Source: an uncultured Flavobacteriaceae bacterium
Lineage (GTDB): Bacteria; Bacteroidota; Bacteroidia; B-17B0; Aurantibacillaceae
Direction: 5' to 3'
Assembly (NCBI GenBank): GCA_964603125.1
Contig: CAZRUA010000041.1
Coordinates: forward strand, 1 to 29,284
Length of the DNA stretch: 29,284 nucleotides
Within the stretch, counting starts at the first letter, position 1. The number at the start of each line of letters is the position of its first letter. The position numbers and the translations under genes were made by a program. This document shows positions 17,998-27,610 of this stretch, one piece after another. The notes beneath the pieces were generated by a model, which ran no database searches, had not been told where the DNA came from, and worked only from the letters and a program-made list of their open reading frames with translations.

Positions 17998-19080
17998 TTG
18001 TGTGAATTGCAAAACAGTTGGATCATAGGTTTTATAAGATAGAACCTTAGAAATCTTTCTACCCTTATATTCAATTGTAATTCTGCTTGTGTCTTTAGAA
18101 TTACTAGACGGAAGTTTGCAACCAGCAAACCACGCATAATCGCGCAAATCCGCATAATGATACTCTCCTTCTTCTCCAGAACAATTTATTTCAATCAATC
18201 TATTCTTTGCGTCATATACAAAGTTTATCTTGGAACAATGATTATATTTTCCATTTATTGGTAATGAGTCCGCATCAAACCACTCTATACATTTAATCCT
18301 GTTGTTTTCATAAGTATGTAATTCGAGCGCTATGCCGTAATCATCTCCAATTAAATGACTAGTTGAGTCAAAATATCTCCTTTGAATTAACTTTTTCTGT
18401 GAATAAGTATTTATGTAACCAGACCAAGAGAATTGAATATCACAACCTAAAACTCCTGCCTTTCTATAAAACATTTCACTTACTAAACCAAAGTTCTTAT
18501 TATATTTTGTAACCCAATAATTAATTTTTGTTGTGTCATTTTTTTTAATCTGTCCCCTTACATCATAATTATTTTTAAAATACCAAAAAGATCCTTCACA
18601 AGTATCATTATTTGAAATGTTCTTATAATAAGTTTCACTGAATTTTTTTCCTCTCGTAAAATTAACTTCCTTACAAAACCCTGAAATATTTTCTTTGAGT
18701 TGACCAAGTGAATCGTAAAAAATTGTAGTTCTTTCAATTACCTTTCTTCTTTGAATAGCTCTATAAACCTTATAAGCGATTCCTTCATAATCACAAACTA
18801 GATGACCAAGTGTATCCATATAAGATTCCTTCCAACAACTATTCTTCTTATCCTTTTCTCGCACAACTTCCCATACAGAATTTCCATAGGAATATAATGG
18901 GACGCGTCTATTTGTCGAATCAAAACAAATTTCCTTTGATTTCGATTTACTCAACCAAATTCTTTCAATTGTACTTCCATTGTCTTCTCTAAATTTAATA
19001 TTCGTTCTTTGTGAGAATCCGATTTGACAGAAAGTCAAAACTAAAACAATGAATATTTTTAATAAAAACTTCATTATCAA
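17995..19080 (-). CDS. Secreted hypothetical protein, W/Y/C-rich with YD-repeat-like motifs
   Basis: Signal peptide MIMKFLLKIFIVLVLTFCQIGFSQ. The motifs FYDSLGQL and YDAKNRLIEI resemble YD/RHS repeats. Confidence 0.45.
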   Translation of the reverse strand: MIMKFLLKIFIVLVLTFCQIGFSQRTNIKFREDNGSTIERIWLSKSKSKEICFDSTNRRVPLYSYGNSVWEVVREKDKKNSCWKESYMDTLGHLVCDYEGIAYKVYRAIQRRKVIERTTIFYDSLGQLKENISGFCKEVNFTRGKKFSETYYKNISNNDTCEGSFWYFKNNYDVRGQIKKNDTTKINYWVTKYNKNFGLVSEMFYRKAGVLGCDIQFSWSGYINTYSQKKLIQRRYFDSTSHLIGDDYGIALELHTYENNRIKCIEWFDADSLPINGKYNHCSKINFVYDAKNRLIEINCSGEEGEYHYADLRDYAWFAGCKLPSSNSKDTSRITIEYKGRKISKVLSYKTYDPTVLQFTQ

Positions 19081-19140
19081 ATATAGTCAATCTATATTTG
19101 AATCGCGCAATTCAATTAAATAAAATTTATATTCATTTTA

Positions 19141-19397
19141 AACACGCTGCGAAACCCTTTTAAAATATAGTGATTCAAAGCTATCAGTTTCTAAGAACAC
19201 TGAAATAAAATTTAAAAAGACAAAAAAAATTTTTGCAGATAAAAAATTTAAATTACTTTTGCATCACAAATAAAAATTATAAACTAAAAAATTAAACGAA
19301 AGAAACAATGTTGGTGTTAAATTTACATACGAAACCTTAAACCGGAAACATTAGTACTATCAATACTTTCAGCCCGGTTTATTGCCGGGTTTTTTAT
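19141..19397 (+). repeat. Copy 1 of a diverged ~260-bp direct repeat: promoter-like -33/-7 elements, a ~130-nt A-rich transcript region, and an intrinsic terminator. Candidate sRNA or attenuator leader upstream of rtcB
   Basis: TTTG at 19232-19235 and TAcTTTTG at 19254-19261 match Bacteroidetes -33/-7 elements. A terminator gcccgg-tttattg-ccgggt plus a T-run lies at 19372-19397. The region is homologous to 21901-22185 (cgaaacccttttaaaatatag vs cgaaacacctttaaaataaag; ttttgcatcacaaataaaaatt vs ttttgcatcataaaatattaaaaat). Confidence 0.4.
19372..19397 (+). terminator. Intrinsic terminator ending repeat copy 1
   Basis: 5-6 bp GC stem (gcccgg/ccgggt) with a 7-nt loop, followed by ttttttatttg. Confidence 0.5.
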
Positions 19398-19619
19398 TTG
19401 TTATAATTGAAAACAACTTTTTGGGGAGTCGAAAAGTAACCGGAAAAAATCAAAATTATTTTATTAAAAATCTTAGGTAAGATTTTAGAATTGATTTTCT
19501 AATGTCAGTTCAAGCAGCATTCTCTTTTCAGGAAATGTATCGAGAACAAACTGAAAATCAATTCCGCTTAGTCGAATACATCGACATGGAAAAATATTGC
19601 CTAAACAAAACCAACAATC

Positions 19620-21023
19620 ATGGGAAAAAATAGATTGAAGGGAAAACATTTAAGGAAAATAGATTTCCCTTCGGACATAGCTAAAAGTTTAGCATTAAAT
19701 ATTATGACGAAACATTTTAAACATGTTTCAAACGAAGAAAAATTACAAATAATACAAAACGTTCTTTTAAATCCTGAACAATACTTAGAAGATGAACATC
19801 TAAAACCCTTGTCGATTGCCTTAGTTGGGAAGCCAAAAATGAAAACTGATTATGAAGTTCACATGTTAAAACACAGTGGTGATTTTACCATTTATGGTCT
19901 ACGTCATATCGGACAAAATGCAATTCAACAAATGGAAGCAGCGATGCGATTACCCATCTCGATGAAAGGAGCTTTAATGCCTGATGCTCATCATGGATAT
20001 GGTTTGCCAATCGGCGGTGTACTAGCAACAAATAACGCAGTAATCCCTTTTGGAGTAGGCCTGGATATTGGTTGTCGAATGGCTTTGAGTATTTACAAAC
20101 TTCCAGAAGATTACATTCAACGCAAGGAGTATGATTTACAAAAAGCATTGCGTAGATATACACATTTTGGAAATGATGGGACACTTGATTTTGAAGTAGA
20201 TCATGAAGTGCTTGAGCGCCCTGAATTTCAAGCCACTGAATTACTCCGAAGATTACATGGTAAAGCGTGGTTTCAACTAGGTTCATCAGGCACAGGAAAT
20301 CATTTTGTTGAATTTGGAAATGTAACAATTGCTCAAAACAATACATTGAATTTACAACCTGGGAATTACATTGGTTTACTATCTCACAGCGGTTCAAGAG
20401 GCATGGGTGCTGCCATAGCAGCAACTTATACTAAAATAGCAATGCAAAAATGCAAACTTCCGCGTGAAATGCAATCAATGGCTTGGTTAAGTTTAGATGA
20501 AGAAGCTGGTCAAGAGTATTGGTTATCCATGAACTTAGCGGGTGACTATGCAAAAGCCTGTCATGATGTGATTCACAAAAACCTTGAACGTGTAATGGGC
20601 TTAGAAGCTATATGCAAAGTTGAGAATCATCACAATTTCGCATGGAAAGAAATACACGACGGTCAAGAATTGATTGTACACCGAAAAGGCGCAACGCCAG
20701 CAAACAAAGGTGAATTCGGTATCATACCAGGAAGTATGAGCAGCAATGGATACATAGTAAGTGGTTTAGGATTACAGGGTTCAATTAATTCAGCATCGCA
20801 TGGGGCCGGCCGAAAAATGTCACGTAAAGAAGCAAGAGAGAGTATAACAAAATCTTCGATGACAAATTTATTAGCCGAACAAAGTGTGAAATTAATTGGT
20901 GGCAGCGTAGAAGAGGCTTCATTTGCTTACAAGGATATTGAGACTGTTATGAGCTGTCAACAAGACCTAGTAAAAATAGAAGGTTCATTCACTCCAAAAA
21001 TTGTAAGGATGAACAAAAGTTAA
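19620..21023 (+). CDS. rtcB: RtcB-family 3'-phosphate/5'-OH RNA ligase (PrfH-associated RtcB2-type)
   Basis: DAHHGYGLPIGG and GSSGTGNHFVEFG are metal and GTP-binding motifs. The His-rich core is typical of RtcB. It sits immediately upstream of prfH, as in the E. coli rtcB2-prfH pair. Confidence 0.85.
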   Translation: MGKNRLKGKHLRKIDFPSDIAKSLALNIMTKHFKHVSNEEKLQIIQNVLLNPEQYLEDEHLKPLSIALVGKPKMKTDYEVHMLKHSGDFTIYGLRHIGQNAIQQMEAAMRLPISMKGALMPDAHHGYGLPIGGVLATNNAVIPFGVGLDIGCRMALSIYKLPEDYIQRKEYDLQKALRRYTHFGNDGTLDFEVDHEVLERPEFQATELLRRLHGKAWFQLGSSGTGNHFVEFGNVTIAQNNTLNLQPGNYIGLLSHSGSRGMGAAIAATYTKIAMQKCKLPREMQSMAWLSLDEEAGQEYWLSMNLAGDYAKACHDVIHKNLERVMGLEAICKVENHHNFAWKEIHDGQELIVHRKGATPANKGEFGIIPGSMSSNGYIVSGLGLQGSINSASHGAGRKMSRKEARESITKSSMTNLLAEQSVKLIGGSVEEASFAYKDIETVMSCQQDLVKIEGSFTPKIVRMNKS

Positions 21024-21065
21024 AACGCAATCGGTAATAACACCAATGAAAACAAAAGCTCTTTC

Positions 21066-21111
21066 TTATGTCAGTTCGAGCTTGTCGAGAACAGAATAAG
21101 AAAGAGCTTTA
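21066..21111 (+). promoter_or_regulatory. Strong intercistronic hairpin between rtcB and prfH
   Basis: aagctctttcttat ... ataagaaagagctt forms a 14-bp perfect stem enclosing gtcagttcgagcttgtcgagaacaga. It is not followed by a T-tract. It shares the ATGTCAGTTCRAGC ... TCGAGAACA motif with 19494-19560. Confidence 0.45.
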
Positions 21112-21123
21112 AAAAATTAAAAA

Positions 21124-21774
21124 ATGGAAACAAAAATATTACAAATAACATCAGGTAGAGGCCCCGCAGAATGCTGTTTAGCTGTTGCATTGACCTTGAA
21201 AGAAATATTGAAGGAGGCTAAAGAAAATAATTTAGCATGTGAAGTAATTAACCGCACACCATATAACATAAACGGAACTTTAGCTTCCGCATCTGTTAAA
21301 ATAAGTGGGAAAAACATTTCTCCATTCATTAATTCTTGGCAAGGTGTATTAGGTTGGATTTGTCAAAGTCCTTTCAGAACGATGCATAAAAGAAAAAACT
21401 GGTTCATAGGAATTGAAGTCTACGACTTATCATCCACTTCACAATGGAGTGAAAAAGATGTTTACTATCAAACACTTCGATCTTCAGGTCCAGGTGGTCA
21501 AAACGTAAATAAAGTAGAAACAGCTGTAAGAGCCGTACACAAGCCTTCAGGCGTGCAGGTTTTAGCTAATGAATCTCGTTCGCAAATGCAAAATAAAAAA
21601 ATTGCGTTAGAGCGATTAAAAGAATTATTTATACAATGGCAATTAAACAATTTAAGAAAAACAGAAAAGCAACAATGGCAAAATCATAATTGTGTTGAAA
21701 GAGGTAATCCAAAAAGAATTTACAAAGGAATCAATTTCAAAAAAGAAAAAATTGGACGTAGTCGAATCAATTGA
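21124..21774 (+). CDS. prfH: Peptide chain release factor homolog RF-H (PrfH)
   Basis: GGQ motif in context (LRSSGPGGQNVNKVETAVRAVH). The N-terminal GPAECCLAV, WICQSPFRTMHKRKNWFIGI and C-terminal ERGNPKRIYKG all align with my recollection of E. coli PrfH. Length is 216 aa. Confidence 0.85.
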   Translation: METKILQITSGRGPAECCLAVALTLKEILKEAKENNLACEVINRTPYNINGTLASASVKISGKNISPFINSWQGVLGWICQSPFRTMHKRKNWFIGIEVYDLSSTSQWSEKDVYYQTLRSSGPGGQNVNKVETAVRAVHKPSGVQVLANESRSQMQNKKIALERLKELFIQWQLNNLRKTEKQQWQNHNCVERGNPKRIYKGINFKKEKIGRSRIN

Positions 21775-21900
21775 TAATAAAGGATTCCAAAGCAAATGAG
21801 AAATTAAAAATTAAAAACTAGCAAGTATTAAAAAATTAAAACGAAACATACAGAATTCAATTTTGATTTATAAAAAATAAAATTGAAATAATAAATTTAT

Positions 21901-22185
21901 AATAATTTTAAATAAGGCTCGAAACACCTTTAAAATAAAGCTCTTCAAGGCAGTATGTTTTTAGAAAAGAAAAATATTTAAAATTTATTTCATAAAATAT
22001 TTTTTCAATTCAAAAATTTGATTTAGTTTTGCATCATAAAATATTAAAAATAAAATGAAAAATAGTTTTACATATCGTCAAAAGTCAATCCTGATAGGGC
22101 ATGCGCCGTTATCATATTGCATGGGGTGGTAAAATTATTTTAAATAATAATTCTAAACCCCGATACGCTCGGGGTTTTTTTATGA
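21901..22185 (+). repeat. Copy 2 of the diverged direct repeat (promoter-like elements, ~145-nt transcript region, terminator), downstream of prfH and upstream of the Rnl5-like ATP-dependent ligase gene
   Basis: TTTG at 22005-22008 and TAgTTTTG at 22024-22031. A terminator ccccga-tacgc-tcgggg plus T7 lies at 22155-22181. Homologous to 19141-19397. Confidence 0.4.
22155..22181 (+). terminator. Intrinsic terminator ending repeat copy 2
   Basis: aaaccccga tacgc tcggggttt followed by tttttttatg. Confidence 0.55.
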
Positions 22186-22296
22186 AATAAAAAATGCGAG
22201 TTAGAGAAAATAAAATACAAAACCTGTTTAGTTCAGCCAGTAAATTACCGGCTTACATACTGCGGTTGCGGAAATAATTATGATTGTAAACAATTG

Positions 22297-22328
22297 TAAA
22301 ACCCGTAACCAAAAGTTTCGGGTTTTTT
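22297..22328 (+). terminator. Second tandem terminator-like hairpin upstream of the Rnl5-like ATP-dependent ligase gene
   Basis: aacccg ... cgggtt stem followed by tttttttatgaa. This is the same tail sequence as the 22155 terminator, so the ~145-bp unit is repeated in tandem. Confidence 0.45.
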
Positions 22329-22379
22329 TATGAACAAAAATTGCTAAGGTGTCTCAGTACCAAAGCATGTTAGAGGAAG

Positions 22380-22407
22380 CCTTCCATCAAATGGGTGGAA
22401 GGTTTTA
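22380..22407 (+). terminator. Third hairpin plus T-run immediately upstream of the Rnl5-like ATP-dependent ligase gene start
   Basis: ccttcc-atcaaatgggt-ggaagg followed by ttttat, about 30 nt before the ATG at 22438. Confidence 0.35.
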
Positions 22408-22437
22408 TAAAAAATAAAAGAAAGGAGAAAAAATAAA

Positions 22438-23439
22438 ATGAGGAAATTAGCTTCAATACAAAAAATTAAAAATATAGAACCAATCGAAGGTGCAGATTCA
22501 ATTATGAAAGCAAGTGTTTTAGGTTGGCAATTAGTAATTAGAAAAGATGAATTTAAAATTGGTGATTTATGCGTTTACTGTGAAATTGACAGTGTATTAC
22601 CCGATAAACCAGAATTTGAATTTATCCGTGCTAAAACTAATCGTATTAAAACTATAAAATTACGTGGTCAAATTTCACAAGGTATCTGCTTTCCATTATC
22701 AGTTTTACCAGAAGGTATAGAGATTGTTGAGGATTTAGACGTTACAGAAATAATTGGTGTAACAAAATTTGAACCGCCAATTCCTGCTAACTTAGCTGGT
22801 GAGATTAAAGGCTTATTTCCTTCATTCATGCCTAAAACAGATGAAACTAGGGTGCAAGTTTTACAACATGTTTTAGATCAATACAAAGGATTAACCTGTT
22901 ACATTGCTGAGAAATTAGATGGAAGCTCTGTAACTTATTACTTCAAAGATGGTGAGTTTGGAGTTTGTTCGCGGAATTTAGATATAGTTAAAAACGAAGA
23001 AAACTCAATGTGGAAATTTGCAATTGAGAACGATTTAGAACAAAAGTTAAAATCATTAAACAAAAACATTTGCTTACAAGGTGAAATAATTGGTGAGGGT
23101 ATTCAAAAAAATAAATACAAGTTAAAAGGTCAAACGGTTTTCTTTTTTAATGTATTTGATATTGATAAATATGAATACTTATCATTAAGCTACTTTAAGC
23201 AAATAATAAATGATTTGAACTTAAAGCATGTTCCAATTATTGAAGATCAATATGAGTTAACGAACAATATGGATGAATTAATTTTAAAATCTAAATTAAA
23301 GTCGACGTTAAACAAAGATACAATCGCTGAAGGTATTGTTATCAGGCCAACGACAGAGATGATTGAAAAACATAAATTACAAGGACGCTTGTCGTTTAAA
23401 GTTATCAATCCAGATTTTTTAATAAAATACGACGAGTAA
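22438..23439 (+). CDS. ATP-dependent RNA ligase, Rnl5-like (DraRnl/NgrRnl-type: N-terminal OB-like domain plus nucleotidyltransferase domain)
   Basis: Motif I KxDG (AEKLDGSSV), motif IV EGIVIR, motif III-like FFFNVFDI and a motif V-like RLSFKVINPD. The N-terminus MRKLASIQKIKNIEPIEGADSI ... GWQLV resembles the N-terminal domain of Deinococcus/Naegleria nick-sealing RNA ligases. Confidence 0.65.
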   Translation: MRKLASIQKIKNIEPIEGADSIMKASVLGWQLVIRKDEFKIGDLCVYCEIDSVLPDKPEFEFIRAKTNRIKTIKLRGQISQGICFPLSVLPEGIEIVEDLDVTEIIGVTKFEPPIPANLAGEIKGLFPSFMPKTDETRVQVLQHVLDQYKGLTCYIAEKLDGSSVTYYFKDGEFGVCSRNLDIVKNEENSMWKFAIENDLEQKLKSLNKNICLQGEIIGEGIQKNKYKLKGQTVFFFNVFDIDKYEYLSLSYFKQIINDLNLKHVPIIEDQYELTNNMDELILKSKLKSTLNKDTIAEGIVIRPTTEMIEKHKLQGRLSFKVINPDFLIKYDE

Positions 23440-23547
23440 TTAAGAATGTAGAATGATGAATTCAGAACTAAAGCGACAAATAAAATTCAGTTTTTTATAT
23501 CTACCGAATTACGGTTGAATGGAGATCGTATGCTTAACTAAGCATAA

Positions 23548-23580
23548 GCCCGGTCTCAAAAGGATCGGGCTTTTTGTTTT
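23548..23580 (+). terminator. Terminator after the Rnl5-like ATP-dependent ligase gene
   Basis: agcccg-(13 nt)-cgggct followed by ttttgtttt. It is preceded by a second hairpin, tatgctta/taagcata, at 23530-23547. Confidence 0.5.
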
Positions 23581-23596
23581 ATTGCCTTCTTAGCCG

Positions 23597-23614
23597 ATCC
23601 CGATTGTAATCGGG
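23597..23614. repeat. Variant copy of the CCCGAT-N4-ATCGGG palindromic hairpin (TCCCGATTGTAATCGGGA)
   Basis: cccgatt/aatcggg is a 7-bp inverted repeat. It shares its arms with the 18-bp palindrome at 23649, 23732 and 26642. Confidence 0.5.
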
Positions 23615-23648
23615 AAGGCACTTGTCTTAGAAAAGAAAGGTGAGTTCG

Positions 23649-23666
23649 TCCCGATAGCTATCGGGA
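23649..23666. repeat. 18-bp perfect palindrome TCCCGATAGCTATCGGGA (copy 1)
   Basis: Exactly self-complementary. An identical copy lies 83 bp downstream. Confidence 0.6.
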
Positions 23667-23672
23667 TTGCAG

Positions 23673-23761
23673 AAGGCACAATGCACTTGTGGCGGAAATG
23701 GTATACGCAACAGACTTAAACTCTGTTATGAATGTTGGTTCTCCCGATAGCTATCGGGACT
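23673..23761 (+). tRNA. tRNA-Leu(TAA)-like type-II tRNA-like gene with non-canonical T-arm region (possible pseudo-tRNA)
   Basis: Acceptor GCACTTG/CATGTGC with one T-T mismatch. D-arm GCG-(11 nt with GG)-CGC. Anticodon arm AACAGA/TCTGTT with loop CTTAAAC (anticodon TAA). The T-arm position is occupied by the 18-bp palindrome (23732-23749) instead of a GTTCRANYC loop. Confidence 0.3.
23732..23749. repeat. 18-bp perfect palindrome TCCCGATAGCTATCGGGA (copy 2), embedded in the Leu-like tRNA-like element
   Basis: Identical to the copy at 23649-23666. Confidence 0.6.
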
Positions 23762-23767
23762 ATCATG

Positions 23768-23854
23768 TGCACTAAGAGGAGAAATAATCGAGCAGGGCTC
23801 GAACTTGTTTGCTAAACAATGTGTCCGCCTAATGGTGGTTGAGTGTCGGGAACT
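23768..23854 (+). tRNA. tRNA-Ser(GCT)-like type-II tRNA-like gene with non-canonical D-arm and T-loop
   Basis: Acceptor GGAGAAA/TTTCTCC is perfect. A CTTGT/ACAAT stem carries the loop TTGCTAA (anticodon GCT). The variable arm is CCGCC-TAAT-GGTGG. The T-arm is TGAGT-GTCGGGA-ACTCA and lacks the TTC T-loop signature. Confidence 0.3.
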
Positions 23855-23868
23855 CATTTCTCCGCAAA

Positions 23869-23951
23869 GGAAGATAGCGACCAGTGGTGGTCAGGCAGAC
23901 TTGAAATCTGCAGCGGTCTGAAAGGACAGGGTTCGACTCCTATATCTTCCG
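23869..23951 (+). tRNA. tRNA-Ser(TGA)-like type-II tRNA with weak T-stem
   Basis: Acceptor GGAAGAT/ATCTTCC is perfect. Anticodon arm GCAGA-CTTGAAA-TCTGC gives anticodon TGA. The variable arm is GTCT-GAAA-GGAC. The T-loop TTCGACT is canonical but the T-stem has only 3 bp. The D-arm GACC-AGTGGT-GGTC has one extra nucleotide at each junction. Confidence 0.4.
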
Positions 23952-23982
23952 CAAGTATTAAATTAAAATTGTTCTTTAAACA

Positions 23983-24055
23983 CGATTTATAGTATAATGG
24001 ATAACACACCCGATTACGACTCGGGAGACTTAAGGTTCGAGTCCTTATAAATCGA
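23983..24055 (+). tRNA. tRNA-Arg(ACG)
   Basis: 73 nt. Acceptor CGATTTA/TAAATCG. Anticodon arm CCCGA-TTACGAC-TCGGG. T-arm TAAGG-TTCGAGT-CCTTA. The D-stem has one A-C mismatch. The gene is AT-rich, and CCA is not encoded. Confidence 0.65.
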
Positions 24056-24060
24056 CGAAA

Positions 24061-24134
24061 TGAGATATAGCTCAACAGGTAAGAGCAGGTGCCTTATACG
24101 CACAAGGCTATAGGTTCAAATCCTATTATCTCAA
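24061..24134 (+). tRNA. tRNA-Ile(TAT)
   Basis: 74 nt. Acceptor TGAGATA/TATCTCA (U1-A72). D-arm GCTC-AACAGGTAA-GAGC. Anticodon loop CTTATAC (anticodon TAT). T-arm ATAGG-TTCAAAT-CCTAT. One G-A mismatch closes the anticodon stem. Confidence 0.6.
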
Positions 24135-24143
24135 CAAATAAAT

Positions 24144-24216
24144 CGGTCTATAGCTCAGATGGCAGAGCACCGTCCTTTTAAGACGGGAGTCCTTGGTTCG
24201 AATCCAAGTAGGCCGA
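24144..24216 (+). tRNA. tRNA-Lys(TTT)
   Basis: Fully canonical cloverleaf. Acceptor CGGTCTA/TAGGCCG (one G-U). D-arm GCTC-AGATGGCA-GAGC. Anticodon arm CCGTC-CTTTTAA-GACGG. T-arm CTTGG-TTCGAAT-CCAAG. Confidence 0.8.
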
Positions 24217-24226
24217 CAAATAAAAA

Positions 24227-24299
24227 CGGGATGTATTTCAATTGGTAGAATACGTGTTCTGGAAACATGAGGTTGCAGGTTCGAGTCCTGCCATCCCGA
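24227..24299 (+). tRNA. tRNA-Pro(TGG)-like with C at position 33 and an A/U-rich 3-bp D-stem
   Basis: Acceptor CGGGATG/CATCCCG. T-arm GCAGG-TTCGAGT-CCTGC. Anticodon stem CGTGT/ACATG with loop TCTGGAA (C33, anticodon TGG). An alternative fold gives a 9-nt loop. Confidence 0.5.
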
Positions 24300-24304
24300 C
24301 GAAT

Positions 24305-24378
24305 GGTGAAATTAGTGTAATGGCAAACACAAAAGCCTGTGAAGCTTTTAATACAGGTTCGATTCCCTTATTTCACCC
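24305..24378 (+). tRNA. tRNA-His(GTG)-like (G-1 encoded) with weak T-stem
   Basis: G-1 plus GTGAAAT/ATTTCAC, with C73. D-arm GTGT-AATGGCAA-ACAC. Anticodon arm AAAGC-CTGTGAA-GCTTT. The T-loop TTCGATT is flanked by a 3-of-5 paired stem (ACAGG/CCCTT). Confidence 0.5.
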
Positions 24379-24381
24379 ATT

Positions 24382-24454
24382 GGACAAGTAGCAAACGTGG
24401 TGTATGCGCTGGACTGAAAATCCAGAGAAAGTGGTTCAACCCCACTCTTGTCCA
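24382..24454 (+). tRNA. tRNA-Phe(GAA)
   Basis: Acceptor GGACAAG/CTTGTCC. Anticodon arm CTGGA-CTGAAAA-TCCAG. T-arm AGTGG-TTCAACC-CCACT. 3-bp D-stem with an 11-nt loop and a 4-nt variable loop. Confidence 0.65.
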
Positions 24455-24521
24455 CAAAAATTATTAGTAAAGCAAAAGCTATCTGGCTAAAAAAGAGATA
24501 GTAAATAATTAAAACAAAAAA

Positions 24522-26641: not shown

Positions 26642-26659
26642 TCCCTATAGCTATCGGGA
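26642..26659. repeat. Third copy of the 18-bp palindrome, with one mismatch (TCCCTATAGCTATCGGGA)
   Basis: 17 of 18 identical to the copies at 23649 and 23732. It lies in the ORF-free region 26566-27610. Confidence 0.5.
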
Positions 26660-26942: not shown

Positions 26943-27201
26943 CCAATAGAATAATAGCAGCTAGGGCAAAGCCTTGTTTAAAACGTAGGAAATTCCCGTT
27001 ATTATTCTAAAAACTTAAAACATTGTTCATTGAAAAACAAAATACTGTTCGGAAGAACAAAAAATCTTCCTCGTGCCAGAGGAAGCGCGATACATAAACA
27101 AAACAATGCCTTGTTGTGGGTTTAAAACGCCCCATAGTATTGTACCAGTAGGAATCAATATACTGCAGCGCCATGTTTAGGGTATTGCTCATGTTGGGGT
27201 C

Positions 27202-27359
27202 AAGGGTTCAATTCCCTTTTTGTTCACAAGGACAAATAGCTCAGTTGGTTAGAGCACAACGCTTAGGTTACGGGTTCGAGTCCCGTCACGATTTCGCTCG
27301 TGTAACTCAATGGTAGAGTAATGGACTGAAAATCCATGCGTAGAAGTTGACTTACTTCT
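27202..27359 (+). pseudogene. String of degenerate tRNA-like modules: a 3' T-arm-plus-acceptor fragment, a D-arm-plus-T-arm module lacking an anticodon arm, and a tRNA-Phe(GAA)-like copy lacking a 3' acceptor strand
   Basis: 27202-27226 is AAGGG-TTCAATT-CCCTT followed by TTTGTTC. 27230-27293 is GGACAAA-TA-GCTCAGTTGGTTAGAGC, 13 nt, ACGGG-TTCGAGT-CCCGT. 27296-27359 is GCTCGTG-TA-ACTC-AATGGTA-GAGT-A-ATGGA-CTGAAAA-TCCAT followed by AGAAG-TTGACTTA-CTTCT. The junctions form hairpins: TTTGTTC/GGACAAA and CACGA/TCGTG. Confidence 0.3.
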
Positions 27360-27610
27360 TTAAAAATAGGTCACCAAAGAATGAGCAAATCATTTCAGTC
27401 AAATTACTAAATGTAAAATGACAGTTGGATTTTTGTCAGGATAGGCAGATACCGTTTTCACAAAGGTTTTGCTTTTTAGGCGTAGTAAACAATTACTTCT
27501 AAAAACCACTATTGGAGGTGCAAACTTAAGCTAAATCTTCACCAAAATTTGATGAAGTGCTTTGCAAGTTCTTTAAATAGAATTAAAAACAAAACATAAA
27601 AACAAATAAA

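Follow-up and report, generated by a model that had tools for sequence, protein, structure and literature searches.

Probable ribosome-dependent attenuators upstream of rtcB-prfH and an RNA ligase gene in a Flavobacteriaceae bacterium

Introduction

How bacteria induce the repair of ribosomes and transfer RNAs (tRNAs) is understood in few systems, namely RtcR in enterobacteria and PA5471.1 in Pseudomonas. In Pseudomonas aeruginosa, the PA5471.1 leader of 13 amino acids (aa) lies ~250 bp 5' of armZ (PA5471, RtcB-like) and PA5470 (prfH); its full translation is modeled to lead to a terminator, and stalling or a premature stop to read-through, which is triggered by aminoglycosides, chloramphenicol, or the loss of SuhB, Cca or Fmt (PMC12057347, PMC13041342, PMC3516279). 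Read-through in Pseudomonas also rises when PA5471.1 is deleted or carries Q3Am. Here, we analyze a 29,284-nucleotide (nt) stretch of DNA (hereafter, the window) from an uncultured Flavobacteriaceae bacterium (GenBank assembly GCA_964603125.1, contig CAZRUA010000041.1, positions 1 to 29,284, forward strand), in which two promoter-leader-terminator units precede, respectively, an rtcB-prfH gene pair and the gene for an ATP-dependent RNA ligase. Both units, we conclude, are probably ribosome-dependent (leader-peptide) transcription attenuators.

The first unit (leader 1) resembles PA5471.1 in placing a tiny open reading frame (ORF) a few hundred nucleotides 5' of an rtcB-like/prfH pair, with terminators in between. 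The dimensions differ, a 13-aa leader ~250 bp upstream in Pseudomonas being matched in the window by a 10-aa leader with 312 nt from its ATG to that of rtcB. The two systems also belong to different phyla and use different promoter types, the window having the TAnnTTTG promoter of Bacteroidota, and in the two residues that the comparison covers, Q3 and F4 of PA5471.1 (PMC13041342) differ from the ML(V/A)L of leader 1. In the window, the stop codon is itself part of the predicted antiterminator helix, and the design recurs behind a paralogous promoter, in series, before an Rnl5-type ligase gene and a tRNA array. The anti-repressor role of ArmZ pertains to Pseudomonas only. By analogy, leader 1 would be a counterpart of PA5471.1 in a second phylum, its peptide looking unrelated and its promoter being of the Bacteroidota type.

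Other described systems share parts of this picture. RtcB2-PrfH rescues and religates ribosomes whose 16S ribosomal RNA (rRNA) has been cut by colicin E3-type toxins (PMC9304027, PMC9223846, PMC13166195), and PrfH variants of Flavobacteriia also rescue intact stalled ribosomes (PMC12829566); a leader is mentioned neither in these papers nor in Baranov 2006 (PMC1586002). Short upstream ORFs sense translation stress generally, as exemplified by toiL-topAI of Escherichia coli, the vmlR leader of Bacillus subtilis and the erm/cat leaders (PMC12121999, PMC9226507, PMC8274638). These leaders control toxin-antitoxin or resistance genes, several of them in a Rho-dependent or translational manner, whereas intrinsic terminators would gate RNA repair genes in the window. 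RtcR with sigma-54 (rtcBA) and TrcR (a tRNA array of Anabaena) exemplify the induction of RNA repair genes or of a supernumerary tRNA array under translational stress (PMC7790460, PMC8421152, PMC10272220). RtcR, which is not present in the window, senses tRNA fragments as a CARF-domain activator, and TrcR is a transcriptional repressor; in contrast, control in the window is predicted to act in cis, possibly atop a WYL regulator. In the literature, we found no description of such leaders in Bacteroidota or of their use in series, nor of an Rnl5 ligase gene or a tRNA array under the control of a leader peptide.

Results

A leader ORF upstream of rtcB-prfH

Leader 1 contains an ORF of 10 codons plus stop (MLVLNLHTKP; 19308-19340; this and all other leader features, the promoter modules, rtcB, prfH, the ligase gene and the tRNA array are on the + strand) and precedes its presumed targets, rtcB (19620-21023; Pfam PF01139) and prfH (21124-21774; Pfam PF00472). 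An earlier, sequence-only reading of the window had held that neither unit carries a protein-coding ORF, a claim contradicted by the conserved short frames at 19308-19340 and, in the second unit, 22055-22132. For comparison, loci of relatives (denoted by L numbers) were collected through RtcB homologues plus one DNA pattern scan, such that the relatives discussed are those among the matches listed and closer genomes were possibly missed; within this sample, the rtcB loci closest to that of the window come from metagenome-assembled genomes of Bacteroidota.

Every close relative has a unit of the copy-1 type 5' of rtcB, and the ORF comprises exactly 10 sense codons in all 14 diverged sequences upstream of rtcB-prfH, across a range of RtcB identity that extends from 87% down to ~60%. 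Over these 14 sequences, frame 0 holds no stops, as against 20 in frame +1 and five in frame +2; the ORF is free of indels, which do occur in its 5' untranslated region (5'UTR), and Leu2 is encoded by the synonymous codons TTG, TTA or CTG. Along with the peptide of the window, the close relatives encode MLALNLNKHT, MLALNQHTKF, MLVVKLHTKP, MLAINFKTKP, MSAVKSNIKP, MLVVKYHTKP, MLVHDTNTKP, MLVANSHTTF, MSVLNLTGKS, MLVLHSNKKP and MLVAKFNTKP, and two Cytophagales-like loci with ~60% identical RtcB encode MLVLNLHIFK and MLVLRSHIFK. Among the more distant RtcB loci listed (L003-L080), L005 and L008 are the only ones with the leader-1 ORF, variants of it occur in L004 and L023, and most of the others lack it.

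Downstream of the ORF stands an intrinsic terminator (AGCCCGG-TTTATTG-CCGGGTT followed by a T-run; 19371-19397, with the stem-loop at 19371-19391), at which transcription would end ~220 nt short of rtcB and whose pairing holds for 95.2% of cells over 12 loci. The stop codon of the leader together with the next 5 nt (UAAACCGG; 19338-19345) is complementary to CCGGUUUA (19374-19381), a segment that makes up the inner half of the terminator 5' arm plus the loop. Alignment of 12 distinct loci shows 97.9% of cells paired in this antiterminator, compared with 11-60% when the partner is slid, and one change is compensatory: L100 has a UAG stop opposite CUA.

This arrangement points to a switch governed by the position of the ribosome. 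When leader 1 is read through to its stop, the ribosome would cover UAAACCGG, the terminator would form, and transcription would stop before rtcB. Should the ribosome not be at the last codons in time, the UAAACCGG/CCGGUUUA antiterminator would form instead and polymerase would read into rtcB-prfH, releasing the pair that rescues ribosomes and repairs 16S rRNA; the trigger would be ribosomes that are damaged or bound by a drug, tRNAs that are missing or cleaved, or a complete lack of translation. Folds of the nascent transcript, computed without the 3' arm of the terminator and with 27 nt blocked by the ribosome at each P-site codon, are consistent with such behavior, in that the antiterminator is present with the P site at codons 1-6 and lost at codons 8-10 in 12 of 12 loci. 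Without a ribosome, it forms in nine of the 12. Pairing of the start-codon region with a conserved UAAUAUCAAUA block was considered as an anti-antiterminator and rejected, as its registers vary by locus and the antiterminator is missing from the free RNA in only three of the 12 loci.

Open frames conserved in this way, with N-termini that are moderately conserved (MKNxFTY and MKR(S/N)LQP in other units), could also denote independent small-protein genes, each with its own terminator, whose 10-27-aa products would have functions of their own as, for example, toxins or signals. We regard this explanation as very unlikely. The 10-aa peptide is variable at seven of its 10 positions, such that a functional product is improbable, and none of six tested peptides matches a Pfam or NCBIfam family. 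It would also leave unexplained why, in three unrelated leader families, the stop codon is placed in or beside the complement of the terminator arm.

Leader 2 and the units that follow it

The second unit lies upstream of the ligase gene (22438-23439; Pfam PF21189, PF09414). The encoded protein matches Naegleria NgrRnl over its full length (5cot_A, E 6e-70) and is therefore of the Rnl5 type, as the sequence-only reading had stated; we accordingly take it to belong to the Rnl5 family. Leader ORF 2 (MKNSFTYRQKSILIGHAPLSYCMGW plus stop, 25 codons; 22055-22132) has homologues of 25-27 codons in seven other loci (L001, L081, L082, L094, L096, L100 and L103), which show synonymous changes (CGT/CGC, CAA/CAG, TTA/CTA) and keep the MKNxFTY start. 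Frame 0 is open in six of six sequences (the window, L001, L082, L094, L096 and L103), with 15 stops in frame +1. The unit precedes a tRNA array in L001, L081 and L094, Thg1 plus the same ligase in L082 and L096, and the ligase in L100, and never stands alone in these loci. A DNA pattern scan for leader 2 returned one true homologue and one chance match from a metagenome collection and no matches from a viral collection.

Leader 2 shows the same relation between the end of its ORF and its terminator. The strand UGGGGU (22122-22127), 2-5 nt before the stop, pairs with ACCCCG (22157-22162) in an intrinsic terminator (AAACCCCGA-TACGC-TCGGGGTTT followed by a T-run; 22155-22184, with the stem-loop at 22155-22177). 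A (U)AUGGGG motif is kept across leader-2 loci, yet in differing reading frames, and is therefore constrained as RNA. In nascent footprint folds of six loci, the antiterminator is lost only with a ribosome in the last 4-6 codons (6/6). By the same logic as for leader 1, the UGGGG strand before the stop would thus pair with the CCCC of the terminator unless a ribosome covers it.

Both copies, then, have an intrinsic terminator between leader ORF and regulated gene. The terminators at 19371-19391 and 22155-22177 bear out the GC-rich stems and T-runs described previously and are alike only in kind; the described distances also hold, with 222 nt from copy 1 to rtcB and 253 nt from copy 2 to the ligase gene.

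The sequence-only reading had raised the alternative of two copies of a small RNA gene. Such transcripts, ~130 and ~147 nt long, would act in trans by base pairing elsewhere, and the ORFs would be incidental. Each unit does have a promoter-like box and a strong terminator, the copy-2 transcript of the window folds well below shuffles (z -3.9), and terminated leaders would themselves build up as small RNAs, such that species of ~130 and ~147 nt on a Northern blot would look like small RNA genes under either explanation. However, relatives do not keep the long hairpin seen in copy 2; only the terminator, the one strongly conserved helix of this unit, and a 3-bp stem survive in them, and a conserved structured small RNA in copy 2 was rejected on this ground. 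Copy 1 folds no better than shuffles (z -1.1). The length, frame and start of the ORFs are all conserved, the units are always sense-oriented and directly 5' of the same genes, and they match no Rfam family. Because the transcribed parts are, moreover, not homologous to each other (see below), the small RNA option lacks support, and we consider it unlikely.

A second alternative holds that the leaders are RNA sensors, whether riboswitch-like, T-box-like or protein-dependent antiterminators, whose ligand would be a metabolite, a tRNA (whole or as a fragment) or a protein, for instance the neighboring WYL regulator. A WYL/WCX regulator gene is conserved in the islands, the rtcB 5'UTR has a strongly covarying long-range helix 3' of the terminator, and the upstream DNA module shared by the two units could be a protein-binding site. 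From promoter to terminator, however, no aptamer-like structure is conserved; what is conserved there is an ATG, a frame that stays open over a constant length, and the complementarity between stop codon and terminator. An Rfam 15 scan of 19000-22500 at gathering and permissive thresholds, a check that had been proposed in the sequence-only reading, gave nothing above threshold, yielding only tRNAs and weak, terminator-driven matches, of which the best was Trp_leader (27 bits; threshold, 41). Covariation between promoter and terminator, likewise proposed as a test, amounts to the one compensatory change in leader 1, and copy 2 shows little conserved structure beyond its terminator. Promoter control by a protein could coexist with attenuation and does not compete with it as an explanation. 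Given the Rfam result, the scant structure of copy 2 and the conservation of the ORFs, the sensor is most likely a translating ribosome and not a ligand-binding RNA, and an RNA sensor strikes us as quite improbable.

Two further units of the attenuator type follow leader 2. Unit 2b (22194-22329), between leader 2 and the ligase gene, comprises an ORF (MRVRENKIQNLFSSASKLPAYILRLRK; 22194-22277) and a terminator-like hairpin with a T-run (~22299-22329), and its last codons (GGUUGCGG; 22264-22271) pair with CCGUAACC (22303-22310) of that hairpin. L096 and L100 have comparable second units; the evidence that unit 2b belongs to the leader-unit design is weaker than for the other units. Unit 3 (23453-23572; ORF MMNSELKRQIKFSFLYLPNYG at 23453-23518) lies directly 5' of the tRNA array, and GAGAUCG just past its stop (23522-23528) pairs with CGGUCUC (23551-23557) of a terminator at 23546-23572. 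Homologues of unit 3 occur in L001, L081, L082, L096 and L100, where they follow the ligase gene or leader 2 and/or precede tRNA arrays, and leader-3 units show the same footprint-fold behavior in six of six cases. The copy-2 transcription unit appears to run in the order promoter, leader 2, unit 2b, ligase, unit 3 and tRNAs, with the tRNA array as its presumed last target; leader 2 and then the units at 22194-22329 and 23453-23572 would, in series, jointly gate the Rnl5 ligase and the array.

Two proposals about the composition of these leaders were tried. An exact sampling of array-tRNA codons by leader 2 was rejected (11 of 24 codons match, against a background of 32.5%; p=0.12), as was the corresponding match for leader 3 (10 of 20; p=0.08); we do not regard these matches as significant because of their p values and because the array holds more, uncalled tRNA-like genes. 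An unusual amino-acid diversity of leader 2 is significant in only three of seven peptides. Separately, a 13-bp hairpin followed by UUUUAU (22378-22408) stands 30 nt 5' of the ligase start, a place at which L096 and L100 have GC-rich hairpins.

The combination of ORF, terminator and stop-region duplex is not evenly distributed between strands. A finder that required an ATG-initiated ORF of 6-40 codons, a perfect terminator and a duplex between the stop region and the terminator 5' arm recovered such units at 44 of 166 terminators on the rtcB strand of the loci, compared with eight of 129 on the other strand, and nearly all of the matches fall inside RNA-repair islands. In the window, the finder also recovers unit 3.

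Several points weigh against attenuation. The transcription start sites and the translation of the ORFs are predictions, and we infer the switch and its inducing signals from sequence, comparison and folding. Covariation is thin because the antiterminator helices, at 5-9 bp, are short and vary little, with one double change, in leader 1. When the pairing between stop region and terminator is tested unit by unit, shuffles reach the observed value in 7-55 of 200 trials (p ~0.04-0.27), and the L103 unit fails. Equilibrium folds of the full leader favor the terminator at any ribosome position in eight of 12 leader-1 orthologues and show the switch in only four of the 12, so that the switch must be kinetic, as in other attenuators. 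Beyond ML(V/A) and MKNxFTY, the peptides are loosely conserved. Finally, the open frames of units 2b and 3 are partly circular evidence, since the finder required an ORF.

Paralogous promoter modules

The two units were originally described as diverged direct repeats that align over their whole length. A direct repeat does exist, at a constant offset of 2770 nt, with 73% identity between 19123-19193 and 21893-21963 and 80% between 19221-19270 and 21991-22040. Without gaps, 19123-19270 and 21893-22040 are identical at 98 of 148 positions; the runner-up 148-nt stretch on either strand of the window reaches 70/148, AT-rich windows average 48.7 (sd 5.6), and 2000 shuffles, each scored at its best offset within ±20, have a mean of 64.2 (sd 2.7) and a highest value of 75. 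The pair is recovered by nhmmer (E=4e-5), and a 42-nt motif of the distal block, AATTTATAWTMATTTTAA-N9-GAAW-N5-TAAAAT, occurs in the window at these two sites only, with 0 expected by chance. The transcribed halves (19271-19400 and 22041-22186), in contrast, have no mutual nhmmer match at E<=0.01. The repeat is thus real, yet limited to promoter and upstream DNA, the transcribed halves being unrelated; it is this lack of homology that speaks against a duplicated small RNA gene. What the repeats represent is a pair of paralogous promoter regions, ~150 nt long, each of which would drive a short leader transcript that acts as a ribosome-dependent attenuator.

Within the copy-1 module (19123-19270), the distal block AATTTATATTCATTTTAA...GAAACCCTTTTAAAAT occupies 19124-19165, a -33 TTTG lies at 19232-19235 and a -7 box, TACTTTTG (TAnnTTTG), at 19254-19261, with a predicted transcription start near 19267-19269. 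The copy-2 module (21893-22040) repeats this layout with a -7 box, TAGTTTTG (TAnnTTTG), at 22024-22031. Of the -33/-7 pairs reported for both copies, TAnnTTTG is present in each, but TTTG stands at -33 in copy 1 only, the copy-2 position (22003-22006) reading TTTC. A match to the TAnnTTTG consensus is found 18-48 nt 5' of the leader ATG in 18 of 19 leaders, the exception being leader 2 of L100, whose coordinate is approximate; in leader-1 and leader-2 units, this box lies mostly within TTGATTTACATTTG, and many have a TTGACA-like -33 element.

In L001, L081 and L094, the 170-nt regions 5' of leaders 1 and 2 can be aligned with the two copies in the window, and the blocks AATTTAtAatmATTTTAA and GAAwcaCCTTTAAAAT are common to all of these upstream regions. 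Within one genome, the proximal parts of the two promoters are closer to each other than to their orthologues, as illustrated by AATAATAGTTGGAGA...AAAAAAAATGATTTACATTTG in both L001 copies. This likeness suggests that the two promoters either have undergone gene conversion or have co-evolved with a DNA-binding factor common to both, for which we infer the conserved WYL/WCX regulator to be a candidate.

The AT-richness of the intergenic DNA involved could be taken to mean that the pair is the relic of a local promoter duplication, with terminators that do no switching and serve as ordinary gene ends or insulators; terminator 2, ~380 nt past the prfH stop, could indeed also end the rtcB-prfH transcript. 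Terminator 1, however, separates a promoter from rtcB and is preceded by no gene. The modules are kept as a pair in L001, L081 and L094, and the leader architecture persists across loci whose RtcB identity falls to ~60%, making a relic most improbable. The common attenuator architecture envisaged in the sequence-only reading therefore stands as far as paralogous promoters, leader and intrinsic terminator are concerned, a layout kept in relatives, and is not supported as regards riboswitch-like sensing.

The rtcB 5'UTR

Downstream of terminator 1, the rtcB 5'UTR is structured (19471-19603). The apex (19473-19479) of a hairpin at 19471-19487 (AATCTTAGGTAAGATT) pairs with TGCCTAA at 19597-19603, 16-23 nt 5' of the rtcB AUG. 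Across 10 loci, 87% of cells in this helix are paired and five of its seven pairs are compensatory; none of 500 shuffles reaches the observed score, and slid partners give 17-46%. The helix could constitute a second, possibly translational, layer of control or a pseudoknot.

The same region contains one of two copies of an element, ATGTCAGTTCRAGC...TCGAGAAC, that looks like a small repeated palindromic element. The copy at 19502-19515 lies within a ~100-nt insertion in the rtcB 5'UTR that is absent from orthologous UTRs, and the copy at 21068-21081 lies in a perfect 15-bp hairpin (21055-21110) between rtcB and prfH.

Genes and tRNA array of the island

The window has a GC content of 33% and represents a fragment of a low-GC bacterial chromosome, in which housekeeping genes, including gatB, msrAB and nrdAB, are followed by the RNA-repair island. 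Besides the genes treated above, the island encodes a WYL/WCX regulator, an S24 peptidase and an SPFH protein. In most relatives (L081-L108), a third operon gene stands right after prfH and encodes an FtsH-like AAA/Peptidase_M41 protein of ~680 aa, which the window lacks; these islands variously carry Thg1, a second RtcB, WYL/WCX, SPFH and an upstream reverse transcriptase.

The tRNA array (23580-24455) begins with degenerate or interrupted tRNA-like genes and continues with Arg-ACG, Ile-TAT, Lys, Pro, His and Phe. Equivalent arrays come after leaders 2 and 3 in L001, L081, L082 and L094; all of these, with that of the window, are supernumerary tRNA arrays linked to RNA-repair genes. An unusual tRNA set recurs in them (24061-24135 in the window): Ile-TAT, Leu-TAG with a short variable arm, Arg-ACG, Pro-TGG, Phe, His, Tyr, Gln and Lys. 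Four copies of an 18-nt palindrome, TCCCGATAGCTATCGGGA, are present in the window (23598-23615, 23649-23666, 23742-23759 and 26642-26659), with 0 expected by chance. Three of the copies lie within the tRNA-like sequences that head the array (23580-23775), which ARAGORN does not call, and L001 has an uninterrupted tRNA-Leu(TAG) at the matching place; the copies look like small hairpin insertions in D- and T-loops. Farther downstream, 27150-27360 contains a cluster of degenerate tRNA-like sequences, within which 27262-27326 gives a sub-threshold match to the Y-RNA-like YrlA family (RF02553; E 2.7e-6; 39.7 bits, with the threshold at 69) over the tRNA-like portion of the model; the window shows no Ro/Rsr gene.

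Discussion

The leaders described here share with the trpL, hisL, pheL and thrL attenuators a leader ORF and, as predicted, alternative hairpins and a decision made by ribosome position, and Rfam leader models match them sub-threshold through their terminators, as with the Trp_leader match above (27 bits against 41). They differ in having no run of regulatory codons for one amino acid, their peptides being compositionally diverse, and in their targets, which are RNA repair enzymes and tRNAs rather than biosynthesis genes. Furthermore, untranslated leader-1 RNA is predicted to antiterminate, not terminate, in 9/12 loci.

An ORF of possibly similar kind stands in E. coli K-12 (NC_000913.3; L109), where a strong Shine-Dalgarno sequence, AAGGAGG, and a 15-codon ORF, MTNPLSMTLCRPFQD, unannotated in the record, are located (882-929), 286 nt 5' of ykfJ (an rtcB2 remnant) and prfH. 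Like PA5471.1 and leader 1, the ORF may encode a leader peptide. Expression of ykfJ is reported to be inducible by 4-azaleucine (PMC3516279).

More tentatively, the island as a whole might form a self-contained 'translation-health' circuit, in which a chain of attenuators behind two co-evolving promoters, with ORFs of 10, 25, 27 and 21 codons, would gauge whether ribosomes are able to finish these ORFs and would release RtcB-PrfH, the Rnl5 ligase and reserve tRNAs stepwise. Such a circuit, if real, would amount to a cis-encoded alarm against ribotoxins and anticodon nucleases, and the longer, compositionally diverse leaders would serve as broad probes of tRNA availability.

If the attenuators operate as proposed, failed translation of a tiny ORF would be a recurrent solution, found across phyla, to the problem of sensing damage upstream of rtcB-prfH, and Bacteroidota would apply the same device in series to the Rnl5 ligase, Thg1 and supernumerary tRNA arrays. 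The leaders would then offer simple cis elements for translation-stress reporters in Bacteroidota, as well as a testable model for why tRNA arrays exist and when they are used.

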